51,833 bases of DNA from a virus. Its lineage: Duplodnaviria > Caudoviricetes. Position numbers and translations under genes: made by a program. The stretch covers positions 1 through 51,833 of IMG/VR virus record IMGVR_UViG_3300013285_000003. One strand, given 5' to 3'. The notes beneath the pieces were generated by a model. That model did not search any database. It was given only the letters and a program-made list of their open reading frames with translations, and was not told where the DNA came from. Shown in pieces: positions 25,472-41,933 of the stretch (positions are counted from its first letter, which is position 1; every line of letters begins with the position of its first letter).

Positions 25472-25720
25472 TTACCAGCCAGAACAATTCCATCTTTTCA
25501 TTGAAGCTCGAGCACGACTTCCTTTTTCACTTTTCTCAGCTACAGGAGCCATCCTTGCGCAAAATGAATCCTTGCGTGCGCCCCCTTCAGGCTGGGGTGC
25601 TTTTAGATGACTTCCTGTCTCACGATTATACTTCGCACGACCCTTTTCGGTAAGCCCTGCGCCTCGTTCAACAGAGAACTTTTCACCTCGACCAACCGCT
25701 AAAGATGGGTTTTTTGCCAT
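25472..25720 (-). CDS. Small basic conserved phage protein
   Basis: GLTEKGRAKYNRETGSHLKAP..RKDSFCARM..RWNC. Confidence 0.75.
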   Translation of the reverse strand: MAKNPSLAVGRGEKFSVERGAGLTEKGRAKYNRETGSHLKAPQPEGGARKDSFCARMAPVAEKSEKGSRARASMKRWNCSGW

Positions 25721-25723
25721 AAG

Positions 25724-26026
25724 TCACCAACAAGATTTTTTAGCTGAACCACCGTTTTTCATTTTGGCAGTTTTTGCAGATTGCTTAAAGTCAGCAGCAC
25801 TTGGTGCACCTTTACTTCCTGCCTTACGCATATGTTCACCTGAGCCATGAGCAATCCGCTCTTGCTTAGCATGAATATTTGCGTACAAGCCACCTTCTTT
25901 TAACTTCTTTCCCTCATCGGCTTTGGCAAATTCTTTACCAACTTTTTGAGGAACTCCGCCATACCCACCTTTTGTGTGTGCGGCAATTTCCATTAACTTA
26001 TGTTGTGCAGGTGTTTTGCTTGGCAT
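25724..26026 (-). CDS. Small basic protein: two modules joined at LKEGG, ending MKNGG
   Basis: MPSKTPAQHKLMEIAAH..VGKEFAKAD / GLYANIHAKQERIAHGSGEHMRK. Confidence 0.75.
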   Translation of the reverse strand: MPSKTPAQHKLMEIAAHTKGGYGGVPQKVGKEFAKADEGKKLKEGGLYANIHAKQERIAHGSGEHMRKAGSKGAPSAADFKQSAKTAKMKNGGSAKKSCW

Positions 26027-26030
26027 GATG

Positions 26031-28688
26031 TTAGGCCTGTGACTCTTGCCAGCTCAGACGAGCTAGAATTGTTGATGGAGTAACTGCGGTGTTAGTAGCA
26101 ACCACATACAGAATGTCTGGCCCGTCAGGGTACTGACCCGCATAACTTGTAGGTACGGTGTTTGTTAAACCACCGCCTAAAATTGCGTTACCAATACCCG
26201 CCACGGAGGTCAGATCCAAGGTCGTTTGACCCGAACTGTTTGTGAAAGCCGCTGCAATTGACTCGCCACCCGTAAAGGTTGCGGTCGTGGACGTTTGCGA
26301 AGCCACTTGAACAATAGAGCTTGTGACTGTATTGTTTTGAGTAGGCGATGTAAAAGAAGTCCAACTCGGTGAGCCGCCGTTAGTGTACCCATTCAGATTT
26401 AACTGAATCAGGAAAGCACCGGAAGTCACCACGCCCAACTCACGCAGTTGTAACTGCAAACGATTAATGACTTCTTTGTTTCCGAGCACACCCGTTTGAC
26501 CGTTATCAACCGAAGGGGCTACCCGAATTGCTAAGATAGGCACCGTAGCACCCGCAGGCACGCTCACCGCAGAAGTTGTACCAAAATTATAGATCAGCGA
26601 TACGTCCTGACTAAACCCACCGTCCATCACTACTGAAGAACCCCAGTGCGAGATGACCGCTACCGAGTCAGGCGGAGCGTACTCAACCGACACGGGTGGC
26701 GTAGCGTTTGTTGCAGGGAATGCAGCGGTGAACGCTGAGGCTGCACCACCGCCCGTTGCGCCACGAATGCAGCCTGTGAACTGATCGTATGCCAAGCCTG
26801 ATTGAGCCGCCGTAGTGATGCCTGAGTAGGTGATGTATTCAATTGCACCACCACTCGCCGCTGCGGTAACTTTAAGCGTACCTCCTGCAGGATTAAAGCC
26901 CACTGAGCTCACGACTGGAATCGTATTCACACCGCTCGTGATTGAGGCGTACAGATTAGTCACTGCTGCTTGACCGCTTGACTCGTAACGTGAAGGCAGG
27001 TTGCCCGAGCGCATGTAGGCTTGGTACTGAATGTTGTTGCTTTGAAAAGCATACATGTACGCAATAGCACCGCCTGTCGTGCGCAAACCGAAGCGTGCAA
27101 CACCCGCACCGTACCAAGAGTAGTCAATAAACCACATTTGGTTCTTGGTAAGGTCTAGCGTATAGCCCGATGATCCTGTGCCATCTAGCGGGTCAAACCA
27201 CTGCGACTGGGGCACTTTTAAATCAATTGTTTTTGAAACCAACGCATTTGCGATTGTCTGACCACGATACTCTGGACTGATAAATAGAGACGTATCACTT
27301 GCAATATTTAGCACACGATATGACTGACCACGGATCACAATGTAATCGCTCGGGGTCAGTTGATTCGTAAATACAGTGCCTGTGCCCGTAACCGTGCCGT
27401 TACCTTGTGTGACCGAAACTGTTCCACTCAATTGATTAACCGAGTTACGCAACACGGCATATAAGGTCTGTCCATCAAACTGGAAGAACAGCCCGTTTTG
27501 TGCGTCAAAGAAACCGAGCTTGTTGCTTGAGCCGTACCACGCATATGGACTTACGCTCACAGGTAGCCCAGTGCTAGTTAAGGCAGGGCTTGCGCTAGGA
27601 ATAATTCCGTTTGCGGCAACATACGTTAATGACGTGGCGGTTGGAACAGAGGCAACTTTAAAAATACCGTTGTAGGCTGCGACTGAGGCCGTTGTAACTT
27701 GAATGAAAGAATTGACCGTCATGTTGTGCGCCCAGCGGGTCGTCACAGTCACGGTCGTATTTGAGCCGTTGTTGGTCACCGAGGTCACAAACAAACGTGG
27801 CTTCATGATCGAACCAGTCGAAAATTGAATGCCTTTCCCGGATTGGTAGCGGAAGTAGCGACGGGTCTGGCGCATCATCTGCTGATTCGGTACCGAAGCA
27901 CCCGCCGTGAAATTAACCGAGCCGTCATAAGCCCGTGTCTCAACATAACCCGAGGGGCGTGCGTAGACGTTTACCTGAGCGCTGGCTGAAGTGGTGACCG
28001 TGCCAGAAGCCCCCGTAGAAGCGATCGTGAATTGCGTTGCCGTTGGTACGGTAGCAACTACCCAAGCACCGTTGACCCCTGTTCCACCCGTTGTGCCAAC
28101 GATATAGACCAGTGAGCCTTGCGACAACCCATGCGAATATAAAGTGTTAACCGTAATCGCAGTACCACTAGTCACAATTGCTGTAGTGCTTGCAGTAGCA
28201 ACAGCAAAGCCTGCGTTGGTATAAAAATATCCTACATAAACGTAAGTAGCAGTAGCGTTGTATTGGTTACCAGTGGCGACCACGTTGGTGGTGACAATTG
28301 TAAAAGACGTACCACCAGTAGAGGCCGTGACGTACCACCAACCGTTTGCGTTGGTGTCTAGGCAGTCTTCTAAGAACACAGGAGTTCCAATAGCGACCGT
28401 GGCGGTTGTTGAAACTATTACCGTGGTCGTGCCGTTACCTGTAACGGCGGTAACAGGGATAGGTGCGTTTTGGTTATACCAGCAGGACTGACGGTTGTTT
28501 TCAAGGTCAAGCTGCTCCCACTTGCTCGGCTGCTGACCGTACTCAAAATCGGTATCAATCAGGGATTGGGGTTGTGAAATGCGCAGCTTATCAACAGGAT
28601 CGTAAGCGCCAGATCTTTGTGATGTTTGAATGCGTAATTGATTATCCGTATTGGAGGTCGGGCCAGTATAGGAGACGATTTGAGCCAT
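26031..28688 (-). CDS. Large beta-rich virion protein (head spike/fibre candidate)
   Basis: 885 aa; repeated HGL..G..V.I.G...NG.W.V..VPTAT.FT units, RQTRRYFRYQSGKG, IDYSWYGAG. Confidence 0.65.
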   Translation of the reverse strand: MAQIVSYTGPTSNTDNQLRIQTSQRSGAYDPVDKLRISQPQSLIDTDFEYGQQPSKWEQLDLENNRQSCWYNQNAPIPVTAVTGNGTTTVIVSTTATVAIGTPVFLEDCLDTNANGWWYVTASTGGTSFTIVTTNVVATGNQYNATATYVYVGYFYTNAGFAVATASTTAIVTSGTAITVNTLYSHGLSQGSLVYIVGTTGGTGVNGAWVVATVPTATQFTIASTGASGTVTTSASAQVNVYARPSGYVETRAYDGSVNFTAGASVPNQQMMRQTRRYFRYQSGKGIQFSTGSIMKPRLFVTSVTNNGSNTTVTVTTRWAHNMTVNSFIQVTTASVAAYNGIFKVASVPTATSLTYVAANGIIPSASPALTSTGLPVSVSPYAWYGSSNKLGFFDAQNGLFFQFDGQTLYAVLRNSVNQLSGTVSVTQGNGTVTGTGTVFTNQLTPSDYIVIRGQSYRVLNIASDTSLFISPEYRGQTIANALVSKTIDLKVPQSQWFDPLDGTGSSGYTLDLTKNQMWFIDYSWYGAGVARFGLRTTGGAIAYMYAFQSNNIQYQAYMRSGNLPSRYESSGQAAVTNLYASITSGVNTIPVVSSVGFNPAGGTLKVTAAASGGAIEYITYSGITTAAQSGLAYDQFTGCIRGATGGGAASAFTAAFPATNATPPVSVEYAPPDSVAVISHWGSSVVMDGGFSQDVSLIYNFGTTSAVSVPAGATVPILAIRVAPSVDNGQTGVLGNKEVINRLQLQLRELGVVTSGAFLIQLNLNGYTNGGSPSWTSFTSPTQNNTVTSSIVQVASQTSTTATFTGGESIAAAFTNSSGQTTLDLTSVAGIGNAILGGGLTNTVPTSYAGQYPDGPDILYVVATNTAVTPSTILARLSWQESQA

Positions 28689-28731
28689 TTTTAAACCTTT
28701 AGAGTAAAGCAGGGGCATCAGCCCCCACCTT

Positions 28732-30249
28732 TTACTTCTTCATTGAACCGCCACGACGGCGAGCAGGCACAACAGTGGTCGAAGCTTCACGCTCACGATC
28801 GCTGATAGCACCCACGCCTTTGCTGTTGATCTGTTGCATTGCACGACGCTCTGCATCCGATACAGCGCCTTGACCCATAAGTTTATCTTTCAAATAACCC
28901 ATGCCCTGCATTGCCTTGCGAGGCAAGTACATCAATGCATCATCAACACCCTTCGACATTGCAAGGTTGTCTGCCGTTTGACGAGCATAGTGATTGTCAT
29001 AATCACGATTTTGTTGATCCATAACAGCACGATCACGCTCGCTCATTACCCCACCATATTGTTTGCGTGCAACCCTACCGCCTTTCTTTTTCATCACTAA
29101 CTGTGGTTGACCTATACCTGCCATATTATTTTTATATTCAGGCGAAGCTAAGATGCTTTGACGAATAGTGTCGGCTGAAGCGCCACGGTTTGCTGCAATA
29201 CCAGTAGGATCAGGCGCACGACCTAACATACTTCCATAAAGAGAATTGATGTCTTCTCCACCTGCTTTTAACATAGGTGACACATCAAACTCGCTATAGT
29301 CAGGAGCAACGCCGTTATTTCTTGCATTTTCTAGCATGGTGTTCATGCGGTCAGCATTTGCTTGTCCTGCTGCTACATATGCCGGATCTTGATATTTTGG
29401 ATCTGCCATATTGGGCATATTATCAACAAATTGACCGCCCATTGCCTTATGAGCTACGCTGCCACCCTTTTTATAAGTGCCAGTTAACTCAGTAATGCGG
29501 ATTGGTTTAGCAGCAGGCTTTTGCTTCATTGCTACAGGAGCGCCTGAACTAACTTTTCCCCCCGTAGCAAAATGTTTTTTTGCGGAACCACCTTTCTTGT
29601 ACCCACCGCCGTTAGCCTTTGCTACGCCACCAGTTTTAAAGCCACCACCGTTACCGAGCTTTACGCCCTTGGTATTAGCAGATGAACGATCGCCTTTCTC
29701 GCCATCCACTACCTTGGTATTGCTAAATTCGCCACCTTGGTCTTGAGTCTTGATAATGCCACCGTCTTTGTAGCCACCTTGACCATCAACCACGCCCCCA
29801 GTATTCATCTTGCCGCCTTTCTTGAGCTTAAGTTCGGTGCCTTTACCGCCCTTGTGCTCCTGTGCGTCATGCTCTTTAAAGGCCTTCTTGATCATGGCCT
29901 TGTCTTGCGACATGTCGGCCTTCATCTCGGCTTTGGTCTCGGCCTTGCCGCCTTCCTTAGCCATCATTGCGCTAGGCATAGGCTTTTTAGCCATCATGGC
30001 TTGGCGACGGGCACCCATTGAGGGTTTGCCGGGCGAAGCCACTGGTGTGTTCATTGCAGGACGTCCCACCAAAGCAGGATTCATTGCAAGAGCGCCCATA
30101 GCACCGCCATCAGCCATCTTCTTGTGCCCAGCCTTGTCGATGCTATCCATCTTCATCTTCTTGTTGGACACATGACCACCTTTCTTGAGTTTCAAGATTA
30201 CTGAAGGCTCGGTGGTTTCCATCTTCACCATTGGTTTGAACTGTCCCAT
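28732..30249 (-). CDS. Basic low-complexity protein with ~15 xxxGG motifs and a DUF4214-like insert
   Basis: LKKGG, MADGG, AKEGG, YKDGG, FKTGG, YKKGG, FATGG and others; INSLYGSMLGRAPDPTG..ILASPEY. Confidence 0.8.
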   Translation of the reverse strand: MGQFKPMVKMETTEPSVILKLKKGGHVSNKKMKMDSIDKAGHKKMADGGAMGALAMNPALVGRPAMNTPVASPGKPSMGARRQAMMAKKPMPSAMMAKEGGKAETKAEMKADMSQDKAMIKKAFKEHDAQEHKGGKGTELKLKKGGKMNTGGVVDGQGGYKDGGIIKTQDQGGEFSNTKVVDGEKGDRSSANTKGVKLGNGGGFKTGGVAKANGGGYKKGGSAKKHFATGGKVSSGAPVAMKQKPAAKPIRITELTGTYKKGGSVAHKAMGGQFVDNMPNMADPKYQDPAYVAAGQANADRMNTMLENARNNGVAPDYSEFDVSPMLKAGGEDINSLYGSMLGRAPDPTGIAANRGASADTIRQSILASPEYKNNMAGIGQPQLVMKKKGGRVARKQYGGVMSERDRAVMDQQNRDYDNHYARQTADNLAMSKGVDDALMYLPRKAMQGMGYLKDKLMGQGAVSDAERRAMQQINSKGVGAISDREREASTTVVPARRRGGSMKK

Positions 30250-30262
30250 GTCAATCTCCTAA

Positions 30263-31234
30263 TTAGGCTTGAGTGACGCCAAGGGCGCCAGTACGGGTTG
30301 CGTTCGGGCCGATTGCAATTGCTGGCAGCATCAAACCGACAACAAGACGCTTGATGCCATCAGGGGCACTCGATGGACTGAATGTTCCACGAACGTCACC
30401 AGTGGTGGTAGTTGCCGTAGTTGTAACAGCAGCAGCGAACGTACCAGAATCAATTGCGAAACCGTTGTTCCAACCAACGTGGCAGATGTAGGCGCCATCA
30501 GTAACACGAATTGGAAAACCAAACAATTGAGTAGTTCCAACCGTTACTGCGGTAACTGAAGCGCCTGCACCAGAAATAGTGGTGATTTGATAAAACGCTT
30601 TTTTACCGTTTGTCGTAGCCGCCGCAACAGAAGTAATTACCTCGCTCATGGCCTGACCGTAGTAATCATAACCAGAGATTGTGTAAGCACGAGCTGTACC
30701 GCCAGTTACCAATGAAACCGATAAAACACGAGGGCAATCTAATTGAAATACAGCTACACCATCTGCACGAGTAAATGATTTAACACCTGCACCTGCAGTC
30801 AACGTCAAGTTACCTGCAGCAGCAGGTGTTTGCGTTGCAGCAATGTTTGAAGTCGAAGAGGTTTGTGGAACAATGTCAAAAACGTAAATACGACCTAACG
30901 GCCCGACGCCGACGTCCATTGGGGCAGGGTCGCCAAGCAATGCATTGCCTGAACCGTAGATTGTGATTGCGCCAGTCGCTGAAGACGATGCGCTGACCGT
31001 GTATGTACCCACGCCGCCTGTACCTGTACCGAATGCGGTGACGTATGAACCTGCAGTTACACCAGTGCCTGATACAAATTGACCAAGAACAATTGGATCA
31101 CCCGACAGCAATTGTGTGACCGTCATGGTGGTAGTAGTAATCGAACCTGCAACAGTGTTTGCAATAGCACTGGGCGCAATACCCATAAAGGTTTGCGCAG
31201 AGCCTAAAAATAGGTCGTCTGAAAATTGAGGCAT
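30263..31234 (-). CDS. Virion structural protein (capsid decoration-like)
   Basis: T/A/G-rich, follows the capsid gene; [29 protein letters not shown]. Confidence 0.65.
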
Positions 31235-31271
31235 TTTAAATCTCCTGTGGCTTGAACCACTCGGTGAGTAG

Positions 31272-31299
31272 AAAAAAGGGCGGATATTTCACCGCCCCC
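31272..31299 (-). terminator. Intrinsic terminator after the capsid gene
   Basis: GGGCGG-tgaaatat-CCGCCC-TTTTTT. Confidence 0.8.
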
Positions 31300-31309
31300 T
31301 TATTGGCGT

Positions 31310-32224
31310 TTACACGCCCGGTGTGCCGTACATCGCACGTGGATCCGTGAAACCAACCTGATAACGCTCTGTTGCTTTATAGCGCATCGAGTCGGTTTCA
31401 AAATCGCCTTCCATGGTCTTCTCAAGCTTACGACGCATCAAGAGCTTCATGCCCTCGGGTGCATCGGTCTGAACCCACCATGCTGTCGAGCTAGTCAGAC
31501 GGCTTAGAACAGCGGCACCCTCGTCCAGCAAGCCGATAGACTTAACTGGGTTGATGTCGTTGTTAGCTGTACCAGCACGCAACACAGACTTCAACAGAAC
31601 TTCGGCTTGGAAGATGTTGCCGGGAGCGACGACAATTTGACGTGGCACCAAGCGAATCTTTTTACCGTTGTTGTCCACCGCTTGGCGGATCTGAATAAGC
31701 ATCTGCTCTAGCGAGGTCTGTGAAAGGTTAGCAGCAGTAGTCAGCAAGTTGCTGAATGTGCCGTTAACGATTGGGTGAGCGTTAGAGCTTAACTGCACTC
31801 CATCGCCGCCGGGGTATGCGCTGTTAAACGCACGGTTGAGAATGTTAGCCGACAATGTCTCTTTCGTCTCAATGAGCGACTGAGCCAGATGACGTGCATA
31901 CACTTGACCGATACGGATGTGATCGCCGTCCTCAACCAGCACCTTGGTCAACGCAAAGGCTAAGCCATAGACGTTGTATACATAGCGCTGCAGAAAGAGC
32001 ACGCCGCCCTGTTGATACGACACAGGAGTGCCATCAGGAAGTTGTGGGGCTGCGCCAAAACCGTAAAGAACAGGTTCTTCATGGTAGTTGCGTGGAATGC
32101 CCTGTTCTTCACGGAACACTCGTGACCATTCGTCGGTTCGCTGGTCGTAGACACCGTCAAAACATTCATTAAGAATGGGTTCGACAATGCTACGAAAGTC
32201 GGTACTGCGCATTGGAGCTGCCAT
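31310..32224 (-). CDS. Major capsid protein (HK97 fold, Mu gpT-like)
   Basis: EEPVLYGFGAAP, YGLAFALTKVLVED, GGDGVQLSSNAHP, DFETDSMRYKATERY..GFTDPRAMYG. Confidence 0.9.
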   Translation of the reverse strand: MAAPMRSTDFRSIVEPILNECFDGVYDQRTDEWSRVFREEQGIPRNYHEEPVLYGFGAAPQLPDGTPVSYQQGGVLFLQRYVYNVYGLAFALTKVLVEDGDHIRIGQVYARHLAQSLIETKETLSANILNRAFNSAYPGGDGVQLSSNAHPIVNGTFSNLLTTAANLSQTSLEQMLIQIRQAVDNNGKKIRLVPRQIVVAPGNIFQAEVLLKSVLRAGTANNDINPVKSIGLLDEGAAVLSRLTSSTAWWVQTDAPEGMKLLMRRKLEKTMEGDFETDSMRYKATERYQVGFTDPRAMYGTPGV

Positions 32225-32237
32225 TTGTCATCTCCCT

Positions 32238-32825
32238 TTAGATAGCGTTAACGGTTGAAATGAACTGTGGCTTGCTGACCTGAACACGAACGATCACATA
32301 GGGGTCACCCCACGCATTGTCCGCATAAGGTGCGAGATCCACAATACGAAACTGTCCAGCGCTTCCTGATCCAACGAGTGATGCCGACAAAGTAGCTTGT
32401 GATAGACCAGTGGTAGTAGAGCCAGCAGAGAAGTTGCTCAAGTTCGCTTCGTTACCAATTGAAGTTTGAGCCATTGTTGCATCAGTCTGGATTTCATAAA
32501 CGATTTGTTGGTCGTTGTAGAAATAAGCAATGCAGCTACCTGCGATATAAGTAGTGCTTGCAGGCCAGTAGTTAGAGACACGACGACGTCCAGTTGTATC
32601 AGTCCACTCGCAACCTGCGAAGGCGCCAGAGACTAAACCGCTGTTGGTGGTTGTATCAAGGACTGGCAAAATGACGCCAGCGTTAGGGCTGTATTGAACA
32701 GCTTGACCTTTCAGGATAGCAGTTGCATAACCTGAAGTGATGCCGCCAGCGAGCGCCTGAGCACGATCCAAACCAGAAGGATGGAACGCAGGACGAAGGC
32801 CGAACGGAGCAGAAGTTGCACTCAT
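32238..32825 (-). CDS. Capsid-associated (cement/decoration) protein
   Basis: SAPFGLRP N-terminus, GAFAGCEWTD, VYEIQ, GSTTTGLS; directly before the capsid gene. Confidence 0.7.
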   Translation of the reverse strand: MSATSAPFGLRPAFHPSGLDRAQALAGGITSGYATAILKGQAVQYSPNAGVILPVLDTTTNSGLVSGAFAGCEWTDTTGRRRVSNYWPASTTYIAGSCIAYFYNDQQIVYEIQTDATMAQTSIGNEANLSNFSAGSTTTGLSQATLSASLVGSGSAGQFRIVDLAPYADNAWGDPYVIVRVQVSKPQFISTVNAI

Positions 32826-32851
32826 AAATAACTCCTAATTCGTTTAAAAAT

Positions 32852-33391
32852 CTACCCAGCAAATACTGGAGCAGATACGGGTTTGTCTATCTCGCCCAAT
32901 CCCTCGCCTTCTATGCGACCTAGACTACGTCCAGAACTATCACGCCCATGAACCTGCTCTGCTTGAAGGCGAATTTTGTTCGCTTCCTCCAGCGGAGCCT
33001 CATGATGAAAGTGCGCCATAACATCCTGATAAAGATCCATCGGGATTTTATAGAGCAACATTTCGTTGCACGCAATAAAACCAACATGCTCGCCAGCTTT
33101 AACTCGATGATTCTCAAACCCGGGATACTCATCCGCTTTCACGGGAACGTAACCAAGTCGCATCCTCTTATCAATACTGTCGTAACTATTAGTTGTCGAT
33201 AACCAGCAAAGGTGCCATCCCGGTGTCTCTGGGACGTTGGGCAATGCGCTTTGTGTCCACTCGTCTTTCCACATCTTGCGACGTTCATCAGCCGATACGA
33301 ACGAATCCTCTGGAGCGTCTCGAGTACGATCAAGACTTGAGCGGCTTTCACGCCCACCAGCAGATAATGATTTCTTTAAACGTGAGTCCAT
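32852..33391 (-). CDS. Conserved head-module protein
   Basis: LPNVPETPGWHLCWLS, RMRLGYVPVKADE, MLLYKIP. Confidence 0.7.
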   Translation of the reverse strand: MDSRLKKSLSAGGRESRSSLDRTRDAPEDSFVSADERRKMWKDEWTQSALPNVPETPGWHLCWLSTTNSYDSIDKRMRLGYVPVKADEYPGFENHRVKAGEHVGFIACNEMLLYKIPMDLYQDVMAHFHHEAPLEEANKIRLQAEQVHGRDSSGRSLGRIEGEGLGEIDKPVSAPVFAG

Positions 33392-33393
33392 TC

Positions 33394-34380
33394 TTAGCTC
33401 CTATTACCTTGGTTAAGGCGTGCCTCAGTGGCATACCGTTTAATCATGCGATTTTTCTTTACTGGGTCGTCCCACATGCCTGCATCTTTCATGGCTCTCA
33501 CCTGATCGGGTGATAGGGTGAAGGTATTTCGCCCTGCACTATTAGATGTTTCTCGACCTGTACTAGTAACCGCACTCCGAGGTCTTTGTCGCTGCTGAAT
33601 AGGTTCACTGTTTTCACTAGTATAGCGGTGAGGTAACAAATCTTGCAAGCGGTTGTCAAGTTCTTCCCAATACTCTCGTGTTTTGGGGTTAAAACCCTCT
33701 GACGCTAGTGCTTGATCTACCTCTAAAGCTAGTTTTGAGTCAGCATCTCGGTGAGCTGGGTCGTACCAAGGGGTCTTGGACATCCAGTTAGCCGCATAGC
33801 GTTGCGTAATAGCATCAGGCACAGGCTTTTGGGCTGGTGCAGGTGCTTCTTGCAGGCGTTCGGCATAACTCACCAATTGCTCACGATTATTTGTCGCTTC
33901 TCGCCACATTTCCTGAGCGCTGGTCATTAAATCACCATTGCCAGTCTCTGTAGCCTCTTTCATTTTCGATCGAGCGAAAGAAATGCGTGCCTCTTGGTCT
34001 TCAATTGCTTTTTTAATTTGGTGGTTGTCGTGGCCTTGCGTTTTGCGTTCAACAACGGACACTCGTTCACGCAATTCTTGGTTTTCACGCTGCAACATCT
34101 GCAGTCGAACGTCTTTCTCGGCCTGCACTTGTTTGTGATAGTCCTTGCGAGTGCGGCGTTTTAGGCGTTTTGCGTCTCGCAATGCTTCTGCATCAGGGTC
34201 AACTGAGCCATTAGCATCGATTTCCGCCTGTGCAGCGGCCTCATCGGCCTCATCGCTGTCATCATGCGCAGCAACTTGGGGTGAGGGTATGTCGTTGGGA
34301 AGACTGACAACGGCTGAACCGTCTGCAGCCTCTTCGATAGCCATAACTTCTTCGGCTTTTGGAGTGTTTTCAGTAGCCAT
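33394..34380 (-). CDS. Capsid scaffolding protein
   Basis: Acidic N-terminus, coiled coil, WMSKTPWY, EYWEELDNRL, TLSPDQVRAMK C-terminus. Confidence 0.75.
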   Translation of the reverse strand: MATENTPKAEEVMAIEEAADGSAVVSLPNDIPSPQVAAHDDSDEADEAAAQAEIDANGSVDPDAEALRDAKRLKRRTRKDYHKQVQAEKDVRLQMLQRENQELRERVSVVERKTQGHDNHQIKKAIEDQEARISFARSKMKEATETGNGDLMTSAQEMWREATNNREQLVSYAERLQEAPAPAQKPVPDAITQRYAANWMSKTPWYDPAHRDADSKLALEVDQALASEGFNPKTREYWEELDNRLQDLLPHRYTSENSEPIQQRQRPRSAVTSTGRETSNSAGRNTFTLSPDQVRAMKDAGMWDDPVKKNRMIKRYATEARLNQGNRS

Positions 34381-34805
34381 TAGATAAACGCCTTCATAGT
34401 TAAGGGATTACCAGTAACCTTTGCGATAATCTCGTGGTCGTTTAAGATCATAAACAGGGCTGGCTCGTCTTCACCGGCAATGCTCACCTCCCAACGGTCA
34501 CCGCCCCACTTAGGGACTCGCAAATAGTCTCCGATTTCGCACCATGAACCCTCAGGCCACGGCGCCATGGTATCTCGCTGTTTAAAGGCGAGGGGGCCAA
34601 TCGCAATAACCTTGGCTACCATGTTGTTCCATTTTTCGGTTTCTCGAGTTTCCTCGACCAAAATAATCCCCGCTTTAGTCGTCTTGTCCTTTGAGCGGCG
34701 CAATTGCACCAAAATTCGTGCTCCAAGGGGTGTCGCTTCGGGGTCTACAGCAGGAAATGCATCCCGCATATCAGCGGCGTAATCCGCTCCCGTTTCAACA
34801 GTCAT
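34380..34805 (-). CDS. GroES/Cpn10-like co-chaperonin
   Basis: PLGARILV, KTTKAGIILV mobile loop, AKVIAIGP, CEIGD, ILNDHEIIAKV. Confidence 0.9.
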   Translation of the reverse strand: MTVETGADYAADMRDAFPAVDPEATPLGARILVQLRRSKDKTTKAGIILVEETRETEKWNNMVAKVIAIGPLAFKQRDTMAPWPEGSWCEIGDYLRVPKWGGDRWEVSIAGEDEPALFMILNDHEIIAKVTGNPLTMKAFI

Positions 34806-34980
34806 CTTCGTCTTCCTTTAGTAAGTTGTTAAGTATGTCAAGAGACATCTGCAACCCTGAATACTCTCCGACTAGTCGTTGGTACGAGTTGAAGTCGCTC
34901 GCAGATCCATTGGCGAGGGACGCCGCTATATCCGCTTGTCTGACCGCTATCGCAGCAATGAAGTCAGAGACGTATTTCAT
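34795..34980 (-). CDS. Small head-module protein
   Basis: LANGSASDFNSYQRLVGEYSGL, coupled to GroES. Confidence 0.7.
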   Translation of the reverse strand: MKYVSDFIAAIAVRQADIAASLANGSASDFNSYQRLVGEYSGLQMSLDILNNLLKEDEDDC

Positions 34981-35156
34981 GCGTTACGTTTCTCAATGAC
35001 AACTTTAGTGGTGAAATTCCCGTGGTCAGAATTGGCCTTGGGCAAAGTCGCTGCTCCTTTCTCTTTGAGTTCACTGCCTGTTACCCATGCGCCAGCCGCC
35101 ATACGGGTATGCTGACGCACATTTTCTTGCTGAAGATCTTTGTCGTTTGTTGCCAT
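34977..35156 (-). CDS. Small protein (59 aa)
   Basis: AGGAG SD; MATNDKDLQQENVRQHTRMAAGAWV...; ATGA overlap. Confidence 0.6.
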   Translation of the reverse strand: MATNDKDLQQENVRQHTRMAAGAWVTGSELKEKGAATLPKANSDHGNFTTKVVIEKRNA

Positions 35157-35165
35157 GATTAACTC

Positions 35166-37691
35166 CTAAAGGTTGCTTTGGGCTACTTCGTTAAGTTTGA
35201 CTGCGGTTTCTGCTTGCTCTTTACGCAATTTGGCCTCGTCAACCGTCAGCTCCGCAGTCTTAATCCGCTCTTGCGTTAGGTTGTTCTCGGCATTCATTGC
35301 CACTTCAATCTGCTGACCTTGGGCTTTCTGAGCAAGCTCAGCCTGCAGGGCTTGTACTTTGTATTGCAAATCTGCTTGGTCTTTGGCGGCACGACGTTGT
35401 GTCTCAGCCATTGAGGCCTGCAGAATGGCTTGCGACTCCGCATCAGGCGGAGTTTGCATCTGCATCATTTGCTGGCGCATCTGCATCATCTGTTGCTGCA
35501 GTTGGGCAAGGATTGGCATGACTTTGACAAACACTTGTTGAGTATCCAATTGCATATGCTCAGAGGCAACCGCCATGGCCTCGTCAATCTTGTGAGCCAC
35601 CTTGCTCTCTTCGTACTTAGACAGGTCGATATCAGTGCCGTGAGTAACGTAGCCATTCATGCGTCCTTGATACCAGAGCATCATGTGTTGCTTGATGTGC
35701 TCTAGAACTTGTGGGGTGTACACAGGAGCGATCGCAGGGTTAGCACCAAGGTGAGGGTCTACCGCAAATGCCAAGTGCGTCTGGATGTGCGCTAATTGAT
35801 CCTGACGTGGGTAAGCATAAGCCATCTTACCCAATGCCATGGCTGCGTTCTCATCGGCTGCGTTCATCTCTTGCGGTTTAGCAGCGTTGGGGATCAGCTC
35901 ATTGGCGTTGGCAATCTTCAATTGCTTCATCACTCGAGCTACCACTGCACGGCGATCAAACTGCTCAGGAAATGTTTGCGCAAGTTGCAAGACGGACTGC
36001 ATCTGCGTGGTGCGCTGTGTTTCAGAAAAGATGTGGGGATCAGATACTGGGATCACGTCTGAGTTGCGACGGAAGTCCTCCTTAGTGATCTTTAGATCCT
36101 CAACCATATCGCCCTTGCGCTGTTCATCTAGATACCAGCGGTTGATGCGGCCTAGCACCTGCAAGACCCGACGCTGCGACTCATGCAGGCGTGCGTGGAT
36201 GGCAGAAAACACTACAGCGCCTTGCTCGATCAGCGCTTGAGTCGTGCCCACGGGCATATTAGAGTTAACGTCGGCAATCTTTTCTTCGGCGGTGGTGACG
36301 ACACCCTTGGCGGCGGTGTCCAAGTAACCCATCAGACTAAACAGCACTTGGCTAGGTGGGTTAAAGGGCATAGGCATGGCAATCTTACGAATGTCATCTA
36401 CCCCGGGGGCGCTCTCAATTTCTGTGACTTGGGTTACTTCAATTTCTGCAGTTTGCCCACTGACTCGGGCGCCCTTAAGTTTCAGCATGGTGGCTGAGTT
36501 ATTGATGTGAGCAGTATCCAAAAGAGCACGAAGGGCACCAGTAAGAGCAGCAGACAACCCACCAATAAGATGAGGAAGACCGATCGCATAAGCACCTCGC
36601 CATGGGATAAACTTGAATTCAATCAACCAATCAAGCTTGGTCATCGTCTCGTCGCCAAACTCCCAGTTGCGGTAGCAGCCGAGCACTTTGTTCTCTAGCT
36701 CGTCGACCATCAGAATGTAGGGGGCGGACTCGCCATCAGCGTATGAGTCTTCATCAATTTCAAGCCATGTGTAGATGTGATAGACACGGCGTAGGCCGTC
36801 CTCATTGTCTTGGTAGGTCTTACCCTCAATCTTCTCATTAGCCTGCTCAGATTTGGTTTGCTCAGGTTCTGAGGTAGCTCGTAGATAATCGATGTTGCGG
36901 TACAGGCCACGAGCAATACGGGCTTTAAACTCCCACTCACTGATGTCGTGCACCTCGGTCACTCGCTGGGCAGTGTAGAAGTTGGCAGCAGCAAATGGCA
37001 GCAACACGTTATCAATGGCGACAAACTCAGCACAAGGACGGCGTTTCTTGTCGTCCCAATACATCTTCATAAACTGTGAGCCACCTAGAGGTAGCTGCGT
37101 AAGCAATTGCTCGGTCTCGTCTTTGTATTCTTCGATCTGCTCGGTGAGCTGCCAGTTGATATAGTCACGCTTGCGCTCAGCGGTGGCGGTCTTCTCTTCT
37201 GTGACCTCGCCGATGATCTTGGTACGGGCTGGACCGTCAGGAGGAAATAGCTCTTTAATTGCTCGAGAGGCGAAGTCGACACAGGCCTCAGCCATGACAG
37301 GGTGAACGACACGACTGGCGCCCATGAAGTTGGCGCCGCCCGGTGCGTCATCACCCAGCCCCGTTCTGCGCAACCCCTCCGCATACTGCTTGTCTCTTTT
37401 CTCTCTATCTTGCCGATCCTTGTCAATCAGGTCTAAGTAACGTGACCCGATCTTCTCAAGGTCGTACAAGTTCATCGTTTCAGCGAGGTTCTCGTAGAAG
37501 TCCTCTTCGTCAGCTGGGCCACGGAACGAGTCTTCCATCCGCACAATGGCAGAACCGTCAGGCAACTCCTCAATCTCGGCCTCTTCGTCAGGCAGGTCAA
37601 CAATCATGCCGCCCTCTGGCGTTGATTCCATCCCATCAATGAATCGCCCGTATTCTGGGTCTACTGGCATTTCAGGCATAGTTGATCTCAT
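35166..37691 (-). CDS. Portal protein (P22-like, Q-rich C-terminal barrel)
   Basis: GASRVVHPVMAEACVDF, LPLGGSQFMKMYWD, FKFIPWRGAYAIGLPHLIGGL, PVGTTQALIEQG, PVSDPHIFS. Confidence 0.9.
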   Translation of the reverse strand: MRSTMPEMPVDPEYGRFIDGMESTPEGGMIVDLPDEEAEIEELPDGSAIVRMEDSFRGPADEEDFYENLAETMNLYDLEKIGSRYLDLIDKDRQDREKRDKQYAEGLRRTGLGDDAPGGANFMGASRVVHPVMAEACVDFASRAIKELFPPDGPARTKIIGEVTEEKTATAERKRDYINWQLTEQIEEYKDETEQLLTQLPLGGSQFMKMYWDDKKRRPCAEFVAIDNVLLPFAAANFYTAQRVTEVHDISEWEFKARIARGLYRNIDYLRATSEPEQTKSEQANEKIEGKTYQDNEDGLRRVYHIYTWLEIDEDSYADGESAPYILMVDELENKVLGCYRNWEFGDETMTKLDWLIEFKFIPWRGAYAIGLPHLIGGLSAALTGALRALLDTAHINNSATMLKLKGARVSGQTAEIEVTQVTEIESAPGVDDIRKIAMPMPFNPPSQVLFSLMGYLDTAAKGVVTTAEEKIADVNSNMPVGTTQALIEQGAVVFSAIHARLHESQRRVLQVLGRINRWYLDEQRKGDMVEDLKITKEDFRRNSDVIPVSDPHIFSETQRTTQMQSVLQLAQTFPEQFDRRAVVARVMKQLKIANANELIPNAAKPQEMNAADENAAMALGKMAYAYPRQDQLAHIQTHLAFAVDPHLGANPAIAPVYTPQVLEHIKQHMMLWYQGRMNGYVTHGTDIDLSKYEESKVAHKIDEAMAVASEHMQLDTQQVFVKVMPILAQLQQQMMQMRQQMMQMQTPPDAESQAILQASMAETQRRAAKDQADLQYKVQALQAELAQKAQGQQIEVAMNAENNLTQERIKTAELTVDEAKLRKEQAETAVKLNEVAQSNL

Positions 37692-38377
37692 TTGATGGGA
37701 TTTAATTGATCTGGCGATCGACGCATGAGGCTATTGATGAAATCAATAATGCCAGAGTTTGGGTTGGACATAGTATTAGGGACTGCTTTCATGGCGCCCT
37801 TAGCCGCACCGAGTGCTAGGGTAGGCGCTACAAAGGAAGACACCAACTCACCCATGGGGTGCTCAGCTTCAGTAATAATCCCGTATTCACGCATGAGGTT
37901 CTTGAGGTGCTCGGAAGACATGTATGTTGGCTCGCTTGGTGGGCGGGTAATACCACTTACCACAGGGGGCGCTGCCAGCGGGTCTTGGTCAAGGTTCTTG
38001 TATCTGCCCTTGTTGGAGTGCAGCATCTCGCTCTCTTTATATGAGGGCGTTGAGTTCAGCATATCAATAAGATCTATGGGTGACATTGATGCCAGCCCTT
38101 TGAGGAACAGATCAGGCAATGTGCGTGCGTCGTAGCTTTGAATCTCTTTTGCCAAACCCTCTGGTAAGTAATCAAAGATAGATTTGCCGTATTGCTTAGG
38201 CTCAGGCGCCCTGTTCTGCAATGCCTCAACCTGCAAGGTAGGACTCAACCCTTGGTGCGAATATGACTCGCTAAAGGGTTTGATTGAGACATCACCGTAA
38301 ACATCAGGCTCACGAGACAATCCTTGAAAAGGTCTGTTCAAGTCGTAGCCTAGCAGATCATTGATGGAGTTAGCCAT
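37688..38377 (-). CDS. Hypothetical protein between TerL and portal
   Basis: 229 aa, overlaps both neighbours. Confidence 0.65.
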   Translation of the reverse strand: MANSINDLLGYDLNRPFQGLSREPDVYGDVSIKPFSESYSHQGLSPTLQVEALQNRAPEPKQYGKSIFDYLPEGLAKEIQSYDARTLPDLFLKGLASMSPIDLIDMLNSTPSYKESEMLHSNKGRYKNLDQDPLAAPPVVSGITRPPSEPTYMSSEHLKNLMREYGIITEAEHPMGELVSSFVAPTLALGAAKGAMKAVPNTMSNPNSGIIDFINSLMRRSPDQLNPIK

Positions 38378-40520
38378 ATTCGGCCTCGTGTTGTTTGACT
38401 AGCATGGCGTGGGTCATCTCGTGGATGTCGCCGTTGTCTAGTGCGTGGTCAAATAATGAGCGCATGATATCGCCGCCGTCTTTAACGTGCTGTGAATCAA
38501 AGGTCTCATAGCGAGCACTGCCACCTGCAGGCTCTGGCGTCATACCACCAATTTGTGAGTGTACAGCGCCACCCTTAGCCTTAGTGATGCTTGGCTCATT
38601 AGGGTCGTAAGTACCACGGTTGCCAATGGCTGACTTCAATTGGCGCTCAGGCTCAAGCATGATGTACTCGTGCGGTGTACCAGTCTTGTGTGGATCAGCG
38701 AGGTGGATATAACCGTAACCTGCGTCCTTGACCTCATCTGCCCACTGCTTTGGCATGACCTCTGGAAACTCTTTGCTACCTTTGGCAAACGTCTGTTGCG
38801 CCCAGTCGAGCATTGCCTGATCGTCCAACATCAAAGGGTTCTTTGCGTTGCTGTAGACGGGCATTACGTTCGTGCCTTCTCTAAACTCACCATTACGGCT
38901 TTTGACGTTGTGCGCTGCAGGTTGATAAGTCGGATTGTCCGTCAACCAAGTTGCATGACCGCTAATTGTTGGGTCAACGCCACCAGCCCTAAACTGATCA
39001 AAATCTTTGGTGGTTATATGAAAAAGCTTTTTAGGGTCGCCAGATTCTGTTCGTATTGGGCTACCGCTTAGCCATCGTGCAAGGTTCTCCTCTGCATCAA
39101 GTTTGCTCAATGCACCAAAAGCTTTTTTAACGCCTCCTGCCTGCATATGCTCAACCTGACCGCCGTCTTTGCGTTGTAGGCCAGTCGTGCGCACGTCAGG
39201 CATGCCTTCTTTTTTGTACCAAGGTAGCAACGTACCTTCGCCCGTCTCAATCTGTTTGAGCACCTCGGCACGAATGTTGGCAGGGTTGGGTTGCTTGCCT
39301 TGTTGTTGCAGGGTGTAGGCGTATTGTTTCTCAAGCAGATCGAGTGCATCACCTCGAGGAGATCTGAGTCCAGTTAACTCGCCACCACCAAACCAGCGGC
39401 CTGCCTGAGCCATACCGCCCGGCAAACCCAACTCCTTAGCAATCCCAAGCAAGCCCTGCTCACCTGCGTTGTACTCCGTGTTGCCAAACCCACCTGCCTC
39501 ATTAAAGTACGGATGGTAACGGCTACCTTGCGACTGGCCTGCCGCCTCATGGACATCAAGCACCACAGACTTACCAAAGTCACCAGCCTTCTGGGTGCCG
39601 TAGGTTGGAATCTTATAGTTGGTCGGAATGTTTGCAAGGTTGTGCTCACGCAAGTCCACGTTGTTCTCAAGGACGTTCTGCACCCCCGTGCGGTGGATGG
39701 GCATCAATGGTAAGCCCATACCAAATTGCTTTTTGAACTCAGCCATCTGCTTAGCAACTGTTGCCTCGTCTAAGGGTAATCCCTGAGCGTTCATGTTGCG
39801 CAAGAACTGACCAACCGCCATCTCATTCATAATTGAGTTGCGTGCCGAGGCAGGTGCAAGACTATGTATCCAGCTATCAAACTTAGATGCAGGCATCCCA
39901 GCCTCTAGCACCGCCTGTTTAATTGGGTAGAGCGAGGCATAGAACGATTCGCCCCCAAGTGGCAGGCCACGCATGATCTGTTTCTTTATTAGCTCACGGT
40001 TCTCAGGGTCGTTGTATAGCTCCTCAACGTGCGAAATATTGGCACGAGTAGGAATGTCTCGAGTAAATGATGATTGCTCAACCCCGGGGAAACCCTCAAG
40101 GGCATTTTTAATCGACGATCGATCGAAGGCTTGCAGTTCAGGCTTAGGCGGTACCCATGGTTCAGTAGCTTGGTCAAGAAACTCATTGGCCTTACGCTTA
40201 CGCTCCTCTACCACTTCGAGCGTATTCCTTAACCTTGATGGGGCGCTCTCGCTATAAGATGCGTCAGCCAAGTCACCATAAGTCTTTTGTAAAGCTGGCT
40301 TATGGACACGTTCCCAGTCTAGCTTTTTGGTCGCTTGCGTTGTGGCTCTCTTCAACACTTCAGCCTCAGACATCTTTGGGTTAGCCCCAGAGATTTTGTC
40401 AGCCAGCCTACGCATTGTTGAGTTTAAAACCTCAGGGCTATAAGCCAACGGAGCCACCGCCTCTATCAGGTGCTCGGGCAGATCAAACACGTTCTTGATG
40501 ATTTTCTTAACGTCTGCCAT
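38370..40520 (-). CDS. Polyvalent protein: HhH-glycosylase-like domain + ADP-ribosyltransferase-like (ART-PolyVal-type) domain
   Basis: aa ~185-380 FY..APASARNS..K..Y..VVLDVH..Y..AKELGL...AQAGRW; aa ~478-646 GDPKKLFHIT..FDQF..WLTDNP..NVMPVY..NPL..AGY..EYIMLEPERQLKSAIGNRGTYDP. Confidence 0.7.
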   Translation of the reverse strand: MADVKKIIKNVFDLPEHLIEAVAPLAYSPEVLNSTMRRLADKISGANPKMSEAEVLKRATTQATKKLDWERVHKPALQKTYGDLADASYSESAPSRLRNTLEVVEERKRKANEFLDQATEPWVPPKPELQAFDRSSIKNALEGFPGVEQSSFTRDIPTRANISHVEELYNDPENRELIKKQIMRGLPLGGESFYASLYPIKQAVLEAGMPASKFDSWIHSLAPASARNSIMNEMAVGQFLRNMNAQGLPLDEATVAKQMAEFKKQFGMGLPLMPIHRTGVQNVLENNVDLREHNLANIPTNYKIPTYGTQKAGDFGKSVVLDVHEAAGQSQGSRYHPYFNEAGGFGNTEYNAGEQGLLGIAKELGLPGGMAQAGRWFGGGELTGLRSPRGDALDLLEKQYAYTLQQQGKQPNPANIRAEVLKQIETGEGTLLPWYKKEGMPDVRTTGLQRKDGGQVEHMQAGGVKKAFGALSKLDAEENLARWLSGSPIRTESGDPKKLFHITTKDFDQFRAGGVDPTISGHATWLTDNPTYQPAAHNVKSRNGEFREGTNVMPVYSNAKNPLMLDDQAMLDWAQQTFAKGSKEFPEVMPKQWADEVKDAGYGYIHLADPHKTGTPHEYIMLEPERQLKSAIGNRGTYDPNEPSITKAKGGAVHSQIGGMTPEPAGGSARYETFDSQHVKDGGDIMRSLFDHALDNGDIHEMTHAMLVKQHEAEYG

Positions 40521-40523: not shown

Positions 40524-41933
40524 TCACGCCGAGTAGGGGTTGGTACGCTTGGGTTTGACGTCAGCGTAGTCATCGTCATCATAACGTGGCTCAGGGTCAA
40601 TCTGCAAGAAACCCATATCTTTCAATAGCCTGATGGCCTGCGTGGTGCTATCCACATAGTCATCATGGGTGGAGTCAGGAAAACTACAGATCTGGCTCAA
40701 AAACCCCTCAGCCCAGTCTCGGACGTAACCCTTGCGCACGCTCGACTCGGGTAGCCAGACCCGACCTGTGGCGAAGATGGAGGCGGTGATCTGCAGGCGC
40801 TGCATCTTATCCGCCCGACCGGGGTTCCAACTCCGCACAGGCAGGTGGGCACGCTGCAGCTCCTGAATAAGCGAGATGCCTGCCGCCTTGTCCTCCACTA
40901 GTATCAGGTCAGGCCGCTTAGCCGTCTTGCCCTCACCATAGCTCACCTTGAACTCCTCAATTACCTTGGGCTTAAGGTCAGGGAAAGTCAAGTGCTCAGC
41001 CCAGCAGTCGATCAGTAGCACCGACATGGGGGCGTCTTGAGGCTTGAATACACCCCACGTTGTCATAGCAGTGGGATCGTTGTAGGTCTTCTCACTGAAT
41101 GCGCAGTCATAGCTTTGGATTATGAACTCGAAGTCAGGGAAGGGCTTGTCGGCAGGATAGAGCTTGAACATATCACGACTCACCACCTTGCCGTCTTCCA
41201 GATCCACGATCTGACCGAGCACCTCTTGTTCGTACAGCTTGCTGCCCTTGTATTGCTCAAGTTGGTTGCTGAACGTCGAGGCTAGGTTCTTAATATTGTC
41301 GTAGGTCGAGGCTCGATCAATGATGACGTCGTCACCCTCTCTACCCACCAGCTCAAGGATCAGATCCTTCGGTCGTGGCGTGGTGGTCACAATCACTCGA
41401 GGTCGGTCACCCAGACGCAAGCCCATCATCATCATATCCCACGCCTCGCCAGCGCCGAGGTATTGCATAGCTGCTAACTCGTCAGCCCAACAGAAGTGGA
41501 ACTGCGGACCACGCAGCCGCTCATACGAGTCACCCGAGATGCCTCTAATAGTAGAGCCGTTCACCAACGTGATCTGGTGATCCTGCTTGTTGTAGTCTTT
41601 GACCAGCTCCTTGGGTATGCAGGCCAGTAAGCCCGACGCTCCCTCGATGCAGGTATGCTTTAAATCGTTGCTGGTAGGGGCTAGGACGAGCGATCGGCTC
41701 TCAGGGTGTATCCATGCCCACCACCACAGCGCCTCGGCGGCACAGCGTGTTTTACCAGCCCCACGACCTGCTAACAGCATCCACACCGTCCAATCGGATT
41801 CCAGTGGGGGCGGAACCTGATGCTTGTGGGCGCCACCAATCCACTCGAGGTGGGCAAGTATGGCAATACGATCGTAGTCAGGCAGGCGCTCGTAGTCCTT
41901 CAGTAGATCGTCGTCGAGCAGCTCAGCCAGCAC
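40524..41933 (-). CDS. terL: Terminase large subunit
   Basis: LAGRGAGKTR Walker A, RLRGPQF..WADE, VTTTPRP, QSYDCA, VEDKAAG, HDDYVDS. Confidence 0.95.
   Translation of the reverse strand: MLAELLDDDLLKDYERLPDYDRIAILAHLEWIGGAHKHQVPPPLESDWTVWMLLAGRGAGKTRCAAEALWWWAWIHPESRSLVLAPTSNDLKHTCIEGASGLLACIPKELVKDYNKQDHQITLVNGSTIRGISGDSYERLRGPQFHFCWADELAAMQYLGAGEAWDMMMMGLRLGDRPRVIVTTTPRPKDLILELVGREGDDVIIDRASTYDNIKNLASTFSNQLEQYKGSKLYEQEVLGQIVDLEDGKVVSRDMFKLYPADKPFPDFEFIIQSYDCAFSEKTYNDPTAMTTWGVFKPQDAPMSVLLIDCWAEHLTFPDLKPKVIEEFKVSYGEGKTAKRPDLILVEDKAAGISLIQELQRAHLPVRSWNPGRADKMQRLQITASIFATGRVWLPESSVRKGYVRDWAEGFLSQICSFPDSTHDDYVDSTTQAIRLLKDMGFLQIDPEPRYDDDDYADVKPKRTNPYSA

Follow-up and report, generated by a model that had tools for sequence, protein, structure and literature searches.

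A short Gly-Gly (GG) motif was found to recur in three proteins of the window analysed here, i.e., the whole 51,833 bases of IMG/VR virus record IMGVR_UViG_3300013285_000003, the complete genome, with direct terminal repeats, of a podovirus-like aquatic phage. The three proteins, of 505, 716, and 100 amino acids (aa), are encoded in the head region on the minus strand (28732-30249, 38370-40520, and 25724-26026, respectively), and comparison with their relatives places the motif at the joints where modules are exchanged. Our preferred reading, held tentatively and somewhat short of an even chance, is that this junction-specific short linear motif universally connects the modules of virion cargo proteins built like beads on a string and is not necessarily cut. 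How proteins carried in phage heads are organised, loaded, and released is known for few model phages only; here, one short conserved GG connector occurs at the joints examined, and a whole unannotated family is built from it. We rate the set as phage proteins of the polyvalent or packaged kind that bear a universal GG connector not described before, together with a new family of disordered basic proteins. Literature searches, judged by titles and the beginnings of abstracts, returned no description of a Gly-Gly connector, of the 505-aa family, or of DUF6321, DUF3008, or DUF7178, and no Gly-Gly prohead-protease cleavage system in phages.

Extent of the Gly-Gly signal

Enrichment of GG runs was assessed with 2000 composition-preserving shuffles for each of 65 open reading frames (ORFs). 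The 505-aa protein contained 20 GG runs versus 8.5 expected (z 5.3), a count reached by none of its 2000 shuffles; the 716-aa protein contained 11 versus 5.5 (p 0.006), and the 100-aa protein 4 versus 1.6 (p 0.03, which alone is non-significant after 65 tests). No excess was present in the capsid protein (2 vs 1.7 expected), the portal (4 vs 2.1), the 895-aa protein (10 vs 8.1), or the 323-aa protein (2 vs 5.0), and the scaffold-like protein had no GG runs. Two Gly-rich proteins carried many runs at chance level, namely an internal protein at 10986-12665 (19% Gly; 18 runs vs 16.2 expected, p 0.31) and a 302-aa protein (32% Gly). The original prediction, made from the letters of the window, had described the signal as common to head-module proteins; it holds for the 505-, 716-, and 100-aa proteins, to which the signal is confined, and fails for the capsid, portal, scaffold, 895-aa, and 323-aa proteins and for the head module generally. 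All 15 pentapeptides that it had listed were recovered in the 505-aa protein (aa 24, 48, 100, 145, 151, 163, 207, 220, 230, 262, 271, 330, 390, 399, and 500), which has five further GG runs, as were all motifs named for the 716- and 100-aa proteins.

The core motif reads hydrophobic-[K/A]-x-G-G-x-[V/I]. A compound element, GG-x-[V/I]-(x)-H-x2-3-GG, had three matches in 30 structural-module proteins (505-aa protein, aa 262; 716-aa protein, aa 453 and 650), where shuffles predict 0.01, and was present in 26/120 homologues of the 505-aa protein and in 32/120 of the 716-aa protein (52 instances). A position-specific scoring matrix (PSSM) was built from 608 distinct GG contexts of more distant 505-aa homologues and applied to the 145 GG sites of the proteome. 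The best sites outside the 505-aa protein were both in the 100-aa protein (MKN|GG, score 12.5; LKE|GG, 5.0), any other protein reaching at most 4.1. The GG sites of the 10986-12665 protein (FEGG and AHGG among them), formerly counted as members of the signal, were rejected on the grounds of their chance-level count and a best PSSM score of 2.7.

Gly codons within GG runs were used in the same proportions as all Gly codons, and the flanking codons varied. Codon usage in the runs being ordinary, the motif is conserved as protein sequence and does not represent a repeat of the DNA. In an alignment of 47 sequences of the 505 family, Gly occupied 15 of the 30 invariant columns, 13 of them within GG runs, so that GG are the most conserved positions of the protein despite its predicted disorder. 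Taken at the level of sequence, these comparisons show the GG motif to be real and selected as a protein feature.

The motif at module joints

The 100-aa protein is basic and consists of an N-module (aa 1-44; phrog_16759 on aa 1-44), the motif LKEGG (aa 42-46), a LYANIHAK module (aa 47-88; phrog_16028 on aa 45-90), and MKNGG (aa 92) followed by the tail SAKKSCW. The next gene on the same strand (25472-25720) encodes an 82-aa DUF6321 protein (PF19846, E 2e-15). An exhaustive profile search yielded 1652 relatives of the 100-aa protein. Architectures were counted with the letter A for the N-module, B for the LYANIHAK module, and C for DUF6321; they were B (122), C (28), AB (15), ABC (15), A (13), BC (9), AC (8), and BBB (1). 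In L018, the 100-aa and the 82-aa protein have a gene each; in L022 and L049, they form one 174-aa fusion via KLKDGG, the joint of such fusions taking the form [M/L]K[E/D]GG in relatives. Module B was missing exactly between two GGs in L031, and an extra module was inserted exactly between two GGs in P0243. When C was fused to another module, a GG lay at most 7 residues upstream in 44/44 cases vs 11% at control positions, and when C was its own gene, none of 16 had an upstream GG. For module B, 84/131 had a GG upstream vs 8.8% at controls. Of 65 C-terminal B modules, 51 ended without GG, the remaining 14 carrying MK-x-GG plus a 7-residue tail ending in Cys-Trp, as does the 100-aa protein. Pro directly followed GG at most B|C (LYANIHAK-DUF6321) joints. 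As judged from these architectures, the motif is shown to be junction-specific and to mark points of module shuffling.

Giant polyvalent proteins, too, can end in modules B and C (e.g., P0263, with the order SLT, ART, B, C). The GG excess was mixed in such multi-module relatives, being found at p ≤ 0.001 in 4/13 and at p < 0.05 in 5/13. As a separate observation, module B occurs as a 48-aa stand-alone gene in the scaffold-capsid interval of the T7-like pelagiphage Bylgja (Pelagibacter phage; L087, 1510-1656), and it was present in 84 phage records, mostly marine podoviruses (mainly cyanopodoviruses, pelagiphages, and roseophages), some under a ribonucleotide reductase annotation. The three small basic families (25472-26026 region, P0242-P0391) carry a conserved near-terminal Cys (...KSCW, ...NCSGW, ...GGRAC); Cys was among the last five residues in 28/150 members of the 100-aa family and in 77/120 of the 505 family.

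The 716-aa protein is encoded between the large terminase and portal genes. Its family comprised 162 homologues (120 listed) with lengths of 396-1250 aa, a conserved core of ~425 residues, and variable cassettes. The core domain (aa 25-450; 39171..40448, minus strand) is predicted to be all-alpha and DUF7178-like: in the ESM Atlas, the features of the N-domain scored 0.92-0.93 to DUF7178 clusters, a lead that was then confirmed by Pfam in relatives (PF23802 (DUF7178) in L066, E 1e-10), and the AlphaFold2 model had moderate to high confidence over aa 25-450, its per-residue confidence (pLDDT) dropping from 74 to 35 at aa 451. Within this domain, the four GG runs (aa 189, 343, 368, and 378) are invariant and structural, are preceded by Pro, Leu, or Phe, and do not belong to the connector class. 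Connector 1 (aa 450-465, QRKDGGQVEHMQAGGV; 39126..39173, minus strand), with RKDGG/MQAGG at aa 453/462, is a compound double-GG at the joint between the core and the ART-PolyVal ADP-ribosyltransferase (ART) domain. The latter spans aa 492-637 (38610..39047, minus strand; PF18760, E 1e-10, 43 bits with a cut-off of 31.2); the region was modelled poorly (pLDDT < 50, aa 451-683), and the ART limits were taken from Pfam. Connector 2 (aa 647-668, KAKGGAVHSQIGG...PAGG; 38517..38582, minus strand), with KAKGG at aa 650, lies 3' of the ART cassette and is followed by VKDGG (aa 679-683) and a helical tail module (aa 684-716, helices 685-696 and 699-714; together 38373..38486, minus strand). The joint HVKDGGDIM also occurred in P0124, P0125, and P0126. 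One motif of the protein, FRAGG (aa 513), lies within the ART domain, a caveat already attached to the original prediction; relatives have FFKPGG or QFLPGG in the same place, and the site is an invariant structural one, intrinsic to the domain, with a context unlike that of the connectors.

A GG run was located 11-13 residues past the ART-PolyVal envelope in 10/10 proteins checked, a count that leaves out the partial ART of P0165 and some other ART matches. One of these ten was P0263, which has an unrelated backbone with an SLT domain. Across the family (relatives of 459-1250 aa), the cassettes ART-PolyVal, PcfJ, LPD23, ParB_N, GDSL lipase, and DUF3990 were arranged in varying order on either side of the core, with a double-GG at many of the cassette joints, e.g., QRKDGGQVEHMQAGG, LKAEGGSVEHMQAGG, and LYAEGGSVEHMQAGG in P0123 alone. 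BLAST homology breakpoints in the 716-aa family were within 3 residues of a GG in 26.6% of 10,886 cases vs 9.9% for random positions, and in the 716-aa protein itself, 51/112 breakpoints fell at aa 451-470. The expectation that the motif often sits at domain boundaries was hence borne out by the pLDDT drop, the breakpoints, the GG after the ART domain, and the junction counts of modules B and C.

By architecture and context, the 716-aa protein is assignable to the polyvalent-protein class, and its packaging is predicted: several unrelated effector or enzymatic domains are present and vary among relatives, and the gene lies amid packaging and virion genes (terminase-portal), a position that is equal in related loci. 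It resembles the polyvalent/MuF-type packaged effectors of Iyer, Burroughs, Anand, de Souza, Aravind 2017 (PMC5512222) in its ART-PolyVal domain, its terminase-portal position, and its build of a core with variable cassettes. It differs from the polyvalent/MuF fusions of that article in that its core is DUF7178-like and all-alpha, not MuF, and in that no peptidase domain was found; moreover, its cassettes are separated by a conserved double Gly-Gly element, and the words "linker" and "glycine" do not occur in the text of the article. When the 716-aa protein was compared with 50,697 phage records by tblastn, matches were restricted to the ART region and came from nine records; among cultured relatives, none carries the protein. 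In phage F116, the polyvalent protein has the ART domain in common with it and showed no GG excess (13 vs 12.8 expected); the connector is thus a trait of this phage world and not of polyvalent proteins generally. Foldseek with the 716-aa model against the PDB gave nothing at E ≤ 0.001 (best E 0.32), and the wide VIA-align search had a best Z of 6.2, for residues 25-79 only.

The 505-aa protein had no match to Pfam, PHROG, or NCBIfam families. With more than 4573 homologues at E ≤ 0.001 (8000 scored candidates), it founds a new, very large metagenomic family. The protein is rich in Met, Lys, and Gly, and the family is basic, with a pI (isoelectric point) of ~10 and a conserved net charge of +36 to +41 (+36 for the 505-aa protein itself). 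The N-terminal half of the protein (aa 1-280; 29410..30249, minus strand) is conserved, basic, predicted to be disordered, and holds 16 of the 20 GG runs, and the first 25 residues (30175-30249, minus strand) are near-invariant, ending in LKLKKGG. The compound element GGSVAHKAMGG (aa 262-272; 29434..29466, minus strand) lies at the border to a variable, partly helical C-terminal region (aa 285-476; 28822..29397, minus strand) to which the similarity of most homologues does not extend; for 79 of the 201 examined, the top high-scoring segment pair stopped at aa 260-279. The protein ends in a basic-GG cap, RRRGGSMKK (aa 497-505; 28735..28761, minus strand), and a GG among the final 10 residues was present in 115/120 family members. 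The AlphaFold model, computed with the 47-sequence alignment, had pLDDT < 50 at aa 10-21, 23-74, 88-240, and 249-278 and contained helices at aa 294-312, 334-341, 359-375, 404-458, and 465-476 (pLDDT up to 79). The glycine number at a given site varied among homologues (GG, GGG, GGGG), as did the number and spacing of GG units; some units are only 5-8 residues apart (YKKGG, FKTGG), and the inter-GG segments of 3-50 residues are predicted to be disordered.

In all 25 related contigs of at least 14 kb, the 505 gene had the same position, i.e., 3' of the capsid gene with one decoration-like ORF between, and preceding the small basic proteins and the adaptor. Over the same loci, the median identity to relatives was 52% for the 505-aa protein vs 94% for the capsid protein (58 ORFs). 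In a tblastn search against the 50,697 phage records, the 505-aa protein matched MW202545.1 only, a result from which the low-complexity filter may have hidden other records. Met accounts for 7.5% of the residues in the 505-aa protein and for 5-8% in its homologues, frequently within M-x-K or A-M-M-A-K runs.

Connector, cleavage site, or docking tag

If the motif is a connector, a Gly-Gly hinge with conserved flanks would keep small modules structurally independent and swappable; the motif lies in disordered segments that separate independently exchangeable units of head-module-encoded proteins. An extended chain, which the hinge would also maintain, would suit storage inside the capsid and passage out via the tail. 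The 505-aa protein would then be the extreme case, most likely a long disordered polycation made mostly of connectors and lying inside the head with the DNA. We infer the hinge function, the DNA association of the 505-aa protein, and the connectors staying uncut; Pro after GG, the variable Gly number, units only 5-8 residues apart, and the lack of a detectable protease favour an uncut connector, and a variable Gly number at a site is expected of a hinge. Such a hinge would amount to a natural plug-and-play linker for cargo modules and would explain the exchange of effector cassettes. A parallel is offered by the junction motifs of polymorphic toxins (VENN in CdiA, DPxGL in Rhs), where a short conserved motif likewise stands at the point at which variable cassettes swap; these differ in sequence and setting from the present case, which has several joints per protein and concerns predicted phage virion proteins.

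Several points weigh against a plain connector. A hinge needs neither conserved flanks (hydrophobic residue and Lys before GG, Val two residues after) nor the His and Met inside the compound element, and sequence-conserved joints of viral polyproteins and polymorphic toxins are usually processing sites. The PSSM trained on the 505 family gave the connectors of the 716-aa protein only 2.4, -0.3, -0.8, -2.4, and -3.1; the two flavours are thus related via the compound element and not identical. A basic-GG located 2-6 residues from the C-terminus ([K/R][K/R][R/Y]GG + 2-6 residues in the 505 family) was present in 115/120 members of the 505 family and 22/120 of the 716 family; it is not an inter-module joint and looks more like a recognition or capping signal. 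Furthermore, the breakpoint and junction counts derive from related sequences, so that the events are not independent, and the presence of the 505-, 716-, and 100-aa proteins in virions is a prediction.

These same features are those that polyprotein processing would explain where a hinge does not, namely the conserved flanks, the His of the compound element, and the C-terminal cap. In this alternative, which we consider doubtful though a live rival, the connectors are cleavage sites of a Gly-Gly-specific protease, either host-encoded or an unrecognised phage-encoded one, and cutting would set the ART and other cassettes free, take off the conserved leader at the N-terminus and the cap at the C-terminus, and break the 505-aa precursor up into small basic peptides. 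The motif is junction-specific, its GG does not vary and the residues before it are conserved, fused and split gene forms appear equivalent, the first 23 residues of the 505-aa protein, which hardly vary, end in LKLKKGG, and the basic-GG with its short tail in 115/120 of the 505 family is reminiscent of polyubiquitin, whose last repeat is capped. Iyer et al. 2017 (PMC5512222) predict that polyvalent proteins have their domains released proteolytically by peptidase domains, none of which was found here. Among the window ORFs searched with sequence profiles (58 with Pfam, 51 with PHROGs, and 30 with NCBIfam; E ≤ 0.01 for Pfam and NCBIfam, E ≤ 0.001 for PHROGs), no peptidase was detected, nor was one in the multi-module proteins of 91 relatives; this counts weakly against processing, as ~35 window ORFs of no assigned function were not folded. 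The 716-aa model, as stated above, gave no fold match. GG units 5-8 residues apart would yield pentapeptides, and Pro follows GG at most B|C joints, a residue that GG-specific papain-like enzymes handle poorly in this position; neither is easily reconciled with GG|X cleavage at every GG.

Gly-Gly processing has precedents in adenovirus, African swine fever virus (ASFV), and polyubiquitin precursors. The core proteins of adenovirus and ASFV are matured by clan CE cysteine proteases at Gly-Gly-X, with the consensus (M/I/L)-x-G-G|x. The phage motif shares with them an invariant GG after a hydrophobic residue and a location at the boundaries of proteins that are here predicted virion proteins, and basic products are possible. 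It differs in that no such protease was found, that the hydrophobic residue stands one position further upstream (P5, as in L/Y/F/M-K-x-G-G, instead of P4), that Pro is often in P1', and that units can be as close as 5 residues. Since the defining protease was sought and not found, the phage system was not filed with adenovirus/ASFV, and the likeness is one of motif and positions only. The internal proteins of T4 carry an N-terminal capsid-targeting sequence that is removed by the prohead protease at an (L/I)xE site. Basic proteins encoded with head genes and a conserved N-terminal peptide before a putative processing point are common to both cases; unlike in T4, neither a prohead protease nor an (L/I)xE site was found, the motif is internal and repeated, and stand-alone modules lack it. 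The internal, repeated placement likewise separates the motif from double-glycine leaders, and no C39 peptidase or transporter family was detected with Pfam. Polyubiquitin is a resemblance only: extra residues cap the last GG in both, yet no ubiquitin-like Pfam family was found, and the inter-GG segments are predicted to be disordered with no beta-grasp modules. A more specific proposal, that an unrecognised Gly-Gly-specific maturation protease releases packaged effectors (e.g., the ADP-ribosyltransferase) and cuts the 505-aa protein into basic core peptides, is judged unlikely; if true, it would make this very abundant aquatic podovirus lineage the first tailed-phage group with a processing code in the style of adenovirus, ASFV, and polyubiquitin.

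Docking or cargo loading is a still less probable alternative, with only a small share of our credence. Here, the connectors or the N-terminal peptide of the 505-aa protein would bind the capsid interior, the scaffold, or the portal and thereby load the prohead. Conserved, multivalent short motifs in a disordered chain would be suited to this; the first 25 residues of the 505-aa protein are near-invariant vs a median identity of 52% for the rest and could be a docking peptide, and the Val two residues after GG together with the His-containing compound element resembles a short docking strand. Encapsulin cargo-loading peptides are comparable as Gly-rich short motifs in disordered segments of cargo enclosed by an HK97-fold shell. 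The likeness is loose: the phage motif is junction-specific and not terminal, stand-alone modules lack it, and binding is only predicted. Indeed, the stand-alone modules without motif (none of 16 DUF6321 genes has it; 51 of 65 terminal LYANIHAK modules end without it) show that it is not a tag needed by each cargo, which disfavours a capsid-targeting code. Structural support was not obtained: a complex prediction in which aa 1-60 of the 505-aa protein were paired with the capsid protein (22-row alignment) scored 0.00 with controls not run and is evidence neither way. The original prediction of a cleavage and/or targeting code thus retains its shared motif at module joints, whereas no protease was found and targeting is disfavoured. 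Should a cleavage or docking code nevertheless be true, it would represent a new maturation or loading system in tailed phages, and packaged effectors could be found by sequence alone.

An evolutionary scar, i.e., a footprint left by expanding repeats and by illegitimate recombination at a shared joint and without a role in the protein, is very unlikely. Modules are exchanged exactly at the motif, and unit number and spacing vary between homologues, as such a footprint would have it; against this, GG are the most conserved columns among homologues of 50-60% identity, the codons at the motif vary freely, and the motif is retained where both flanking modules are unchanged and lost precisely when a module stands alone. 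A GG with hydrophobic residues after it resembles the mobile loop of GroES, and a gene for a GroES-like protein (34380-34805, minus strand) is present in the phage; mimicry of this loop by the GG motif is given hardly any credence, as the GG protein is absent from relatives that have the same GroES gene. Compositional chance in Gly-rich proteins, which accounts for the runs of the 10986-12665 protein and is consistent with the chance-level runs of the 302-aa protein, is refuted for the 505-, 716-, and 100-aa proteins by the shuffles of the 505-aa protein, the compound element, and the junction statistics, and receives practically no weight.

Genome context and relatives

All genes of the head region lie on the minus strand. 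In transcription order, the small terminase (41923-42432) and the large terminase (40524-41933) precede the 716-aa gene, which is followed by a 229-aa ORF (37688-38377) with few-base overlaps with both the 716-aa gene and the portal gene. The portal (35166-37691; phrog_1216), the GroES-like (Cpn10) protein (Pfam E 2.7e-7), and a series of a 328-aa scaffold-like, a 179-aa, and a 195-aa protein, located between the GroES-like and capsid genes, come next. The major capsid protein (31310-32224; Phage_capsid_4) is separated from the 505-aa gene by that of the 323-aa protein. Downstream of the 505-aa gene are the 895-aa virion structural protein (26031-28718; phrog_5838), the 100-aa and 82-aa proteins, and an SU10-type adaptor of 357 aa (24389-25462).

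The closest public record, MW202545.1, is an uncultured spring-water phage syntenic with the window. The head module is more distantly common to Caulobacter phage KcrB, Roseobacter phage CRP-901, and Pelagibacter phage HTVC027P; in KcrB and HTVC027P, which are cultured and have the same head module, the GG protein was absent and there was no GG excess. The GroES-like gene lies inside the head module with portal and scaffold-like flanks in the window, in all related loci, and in KcrB and HTVC027P. At E ≤ 1e-5, a search with the capsid protein retrieved 6915 protein clusters, including one that comprises 2401 member sequences, which points to a lineage that is very abundant in metagenomes and conserved in its capsid. 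Among 43 distinct related contigs, the capsid protein was 89-96% identical, with 50-79% for the neighbouring head genes. Sequence and profile searches with the capsid protein, the 100-aa protein, and the 505-family profile returned zero matches among solved structures, and the 179-aa protein matched unnamed viral clusters only in the ESM Atlas.

Some further observations concern single genes. The 229-aa ORF had no family match and no BLAST counterpart in 80 related loci; possibly, it represents a cassette that became separated from the polyvalent protein. The 895-aa protein is peculiar to this genome at its position, where relatives have an ORF of ~140 aa or ~260 aa. Two SU10_adaptor-like proteins are encoded on the minus strand (24389-25462 and 15845-16477), and the 357-aa adaptor carries an F5/8 type C (discoidin-like) insert at aa 100-203 that scored under the Pfam cut-off. 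Upstream of the terminase genes, a Lar-like restriction-alleviation protein (42460-42792, minus strand; E 4.5e-6) was just under the Pfam cut-off. An HNH endonuclease (17012-17539, minus strand) adjoins the GH108 endolysin, and a replication initiation protein of the NGO0469 family (4136-4807, plus strand; NCBIfam E 1e-54) is encoded on the strand opposite to the structural genes.

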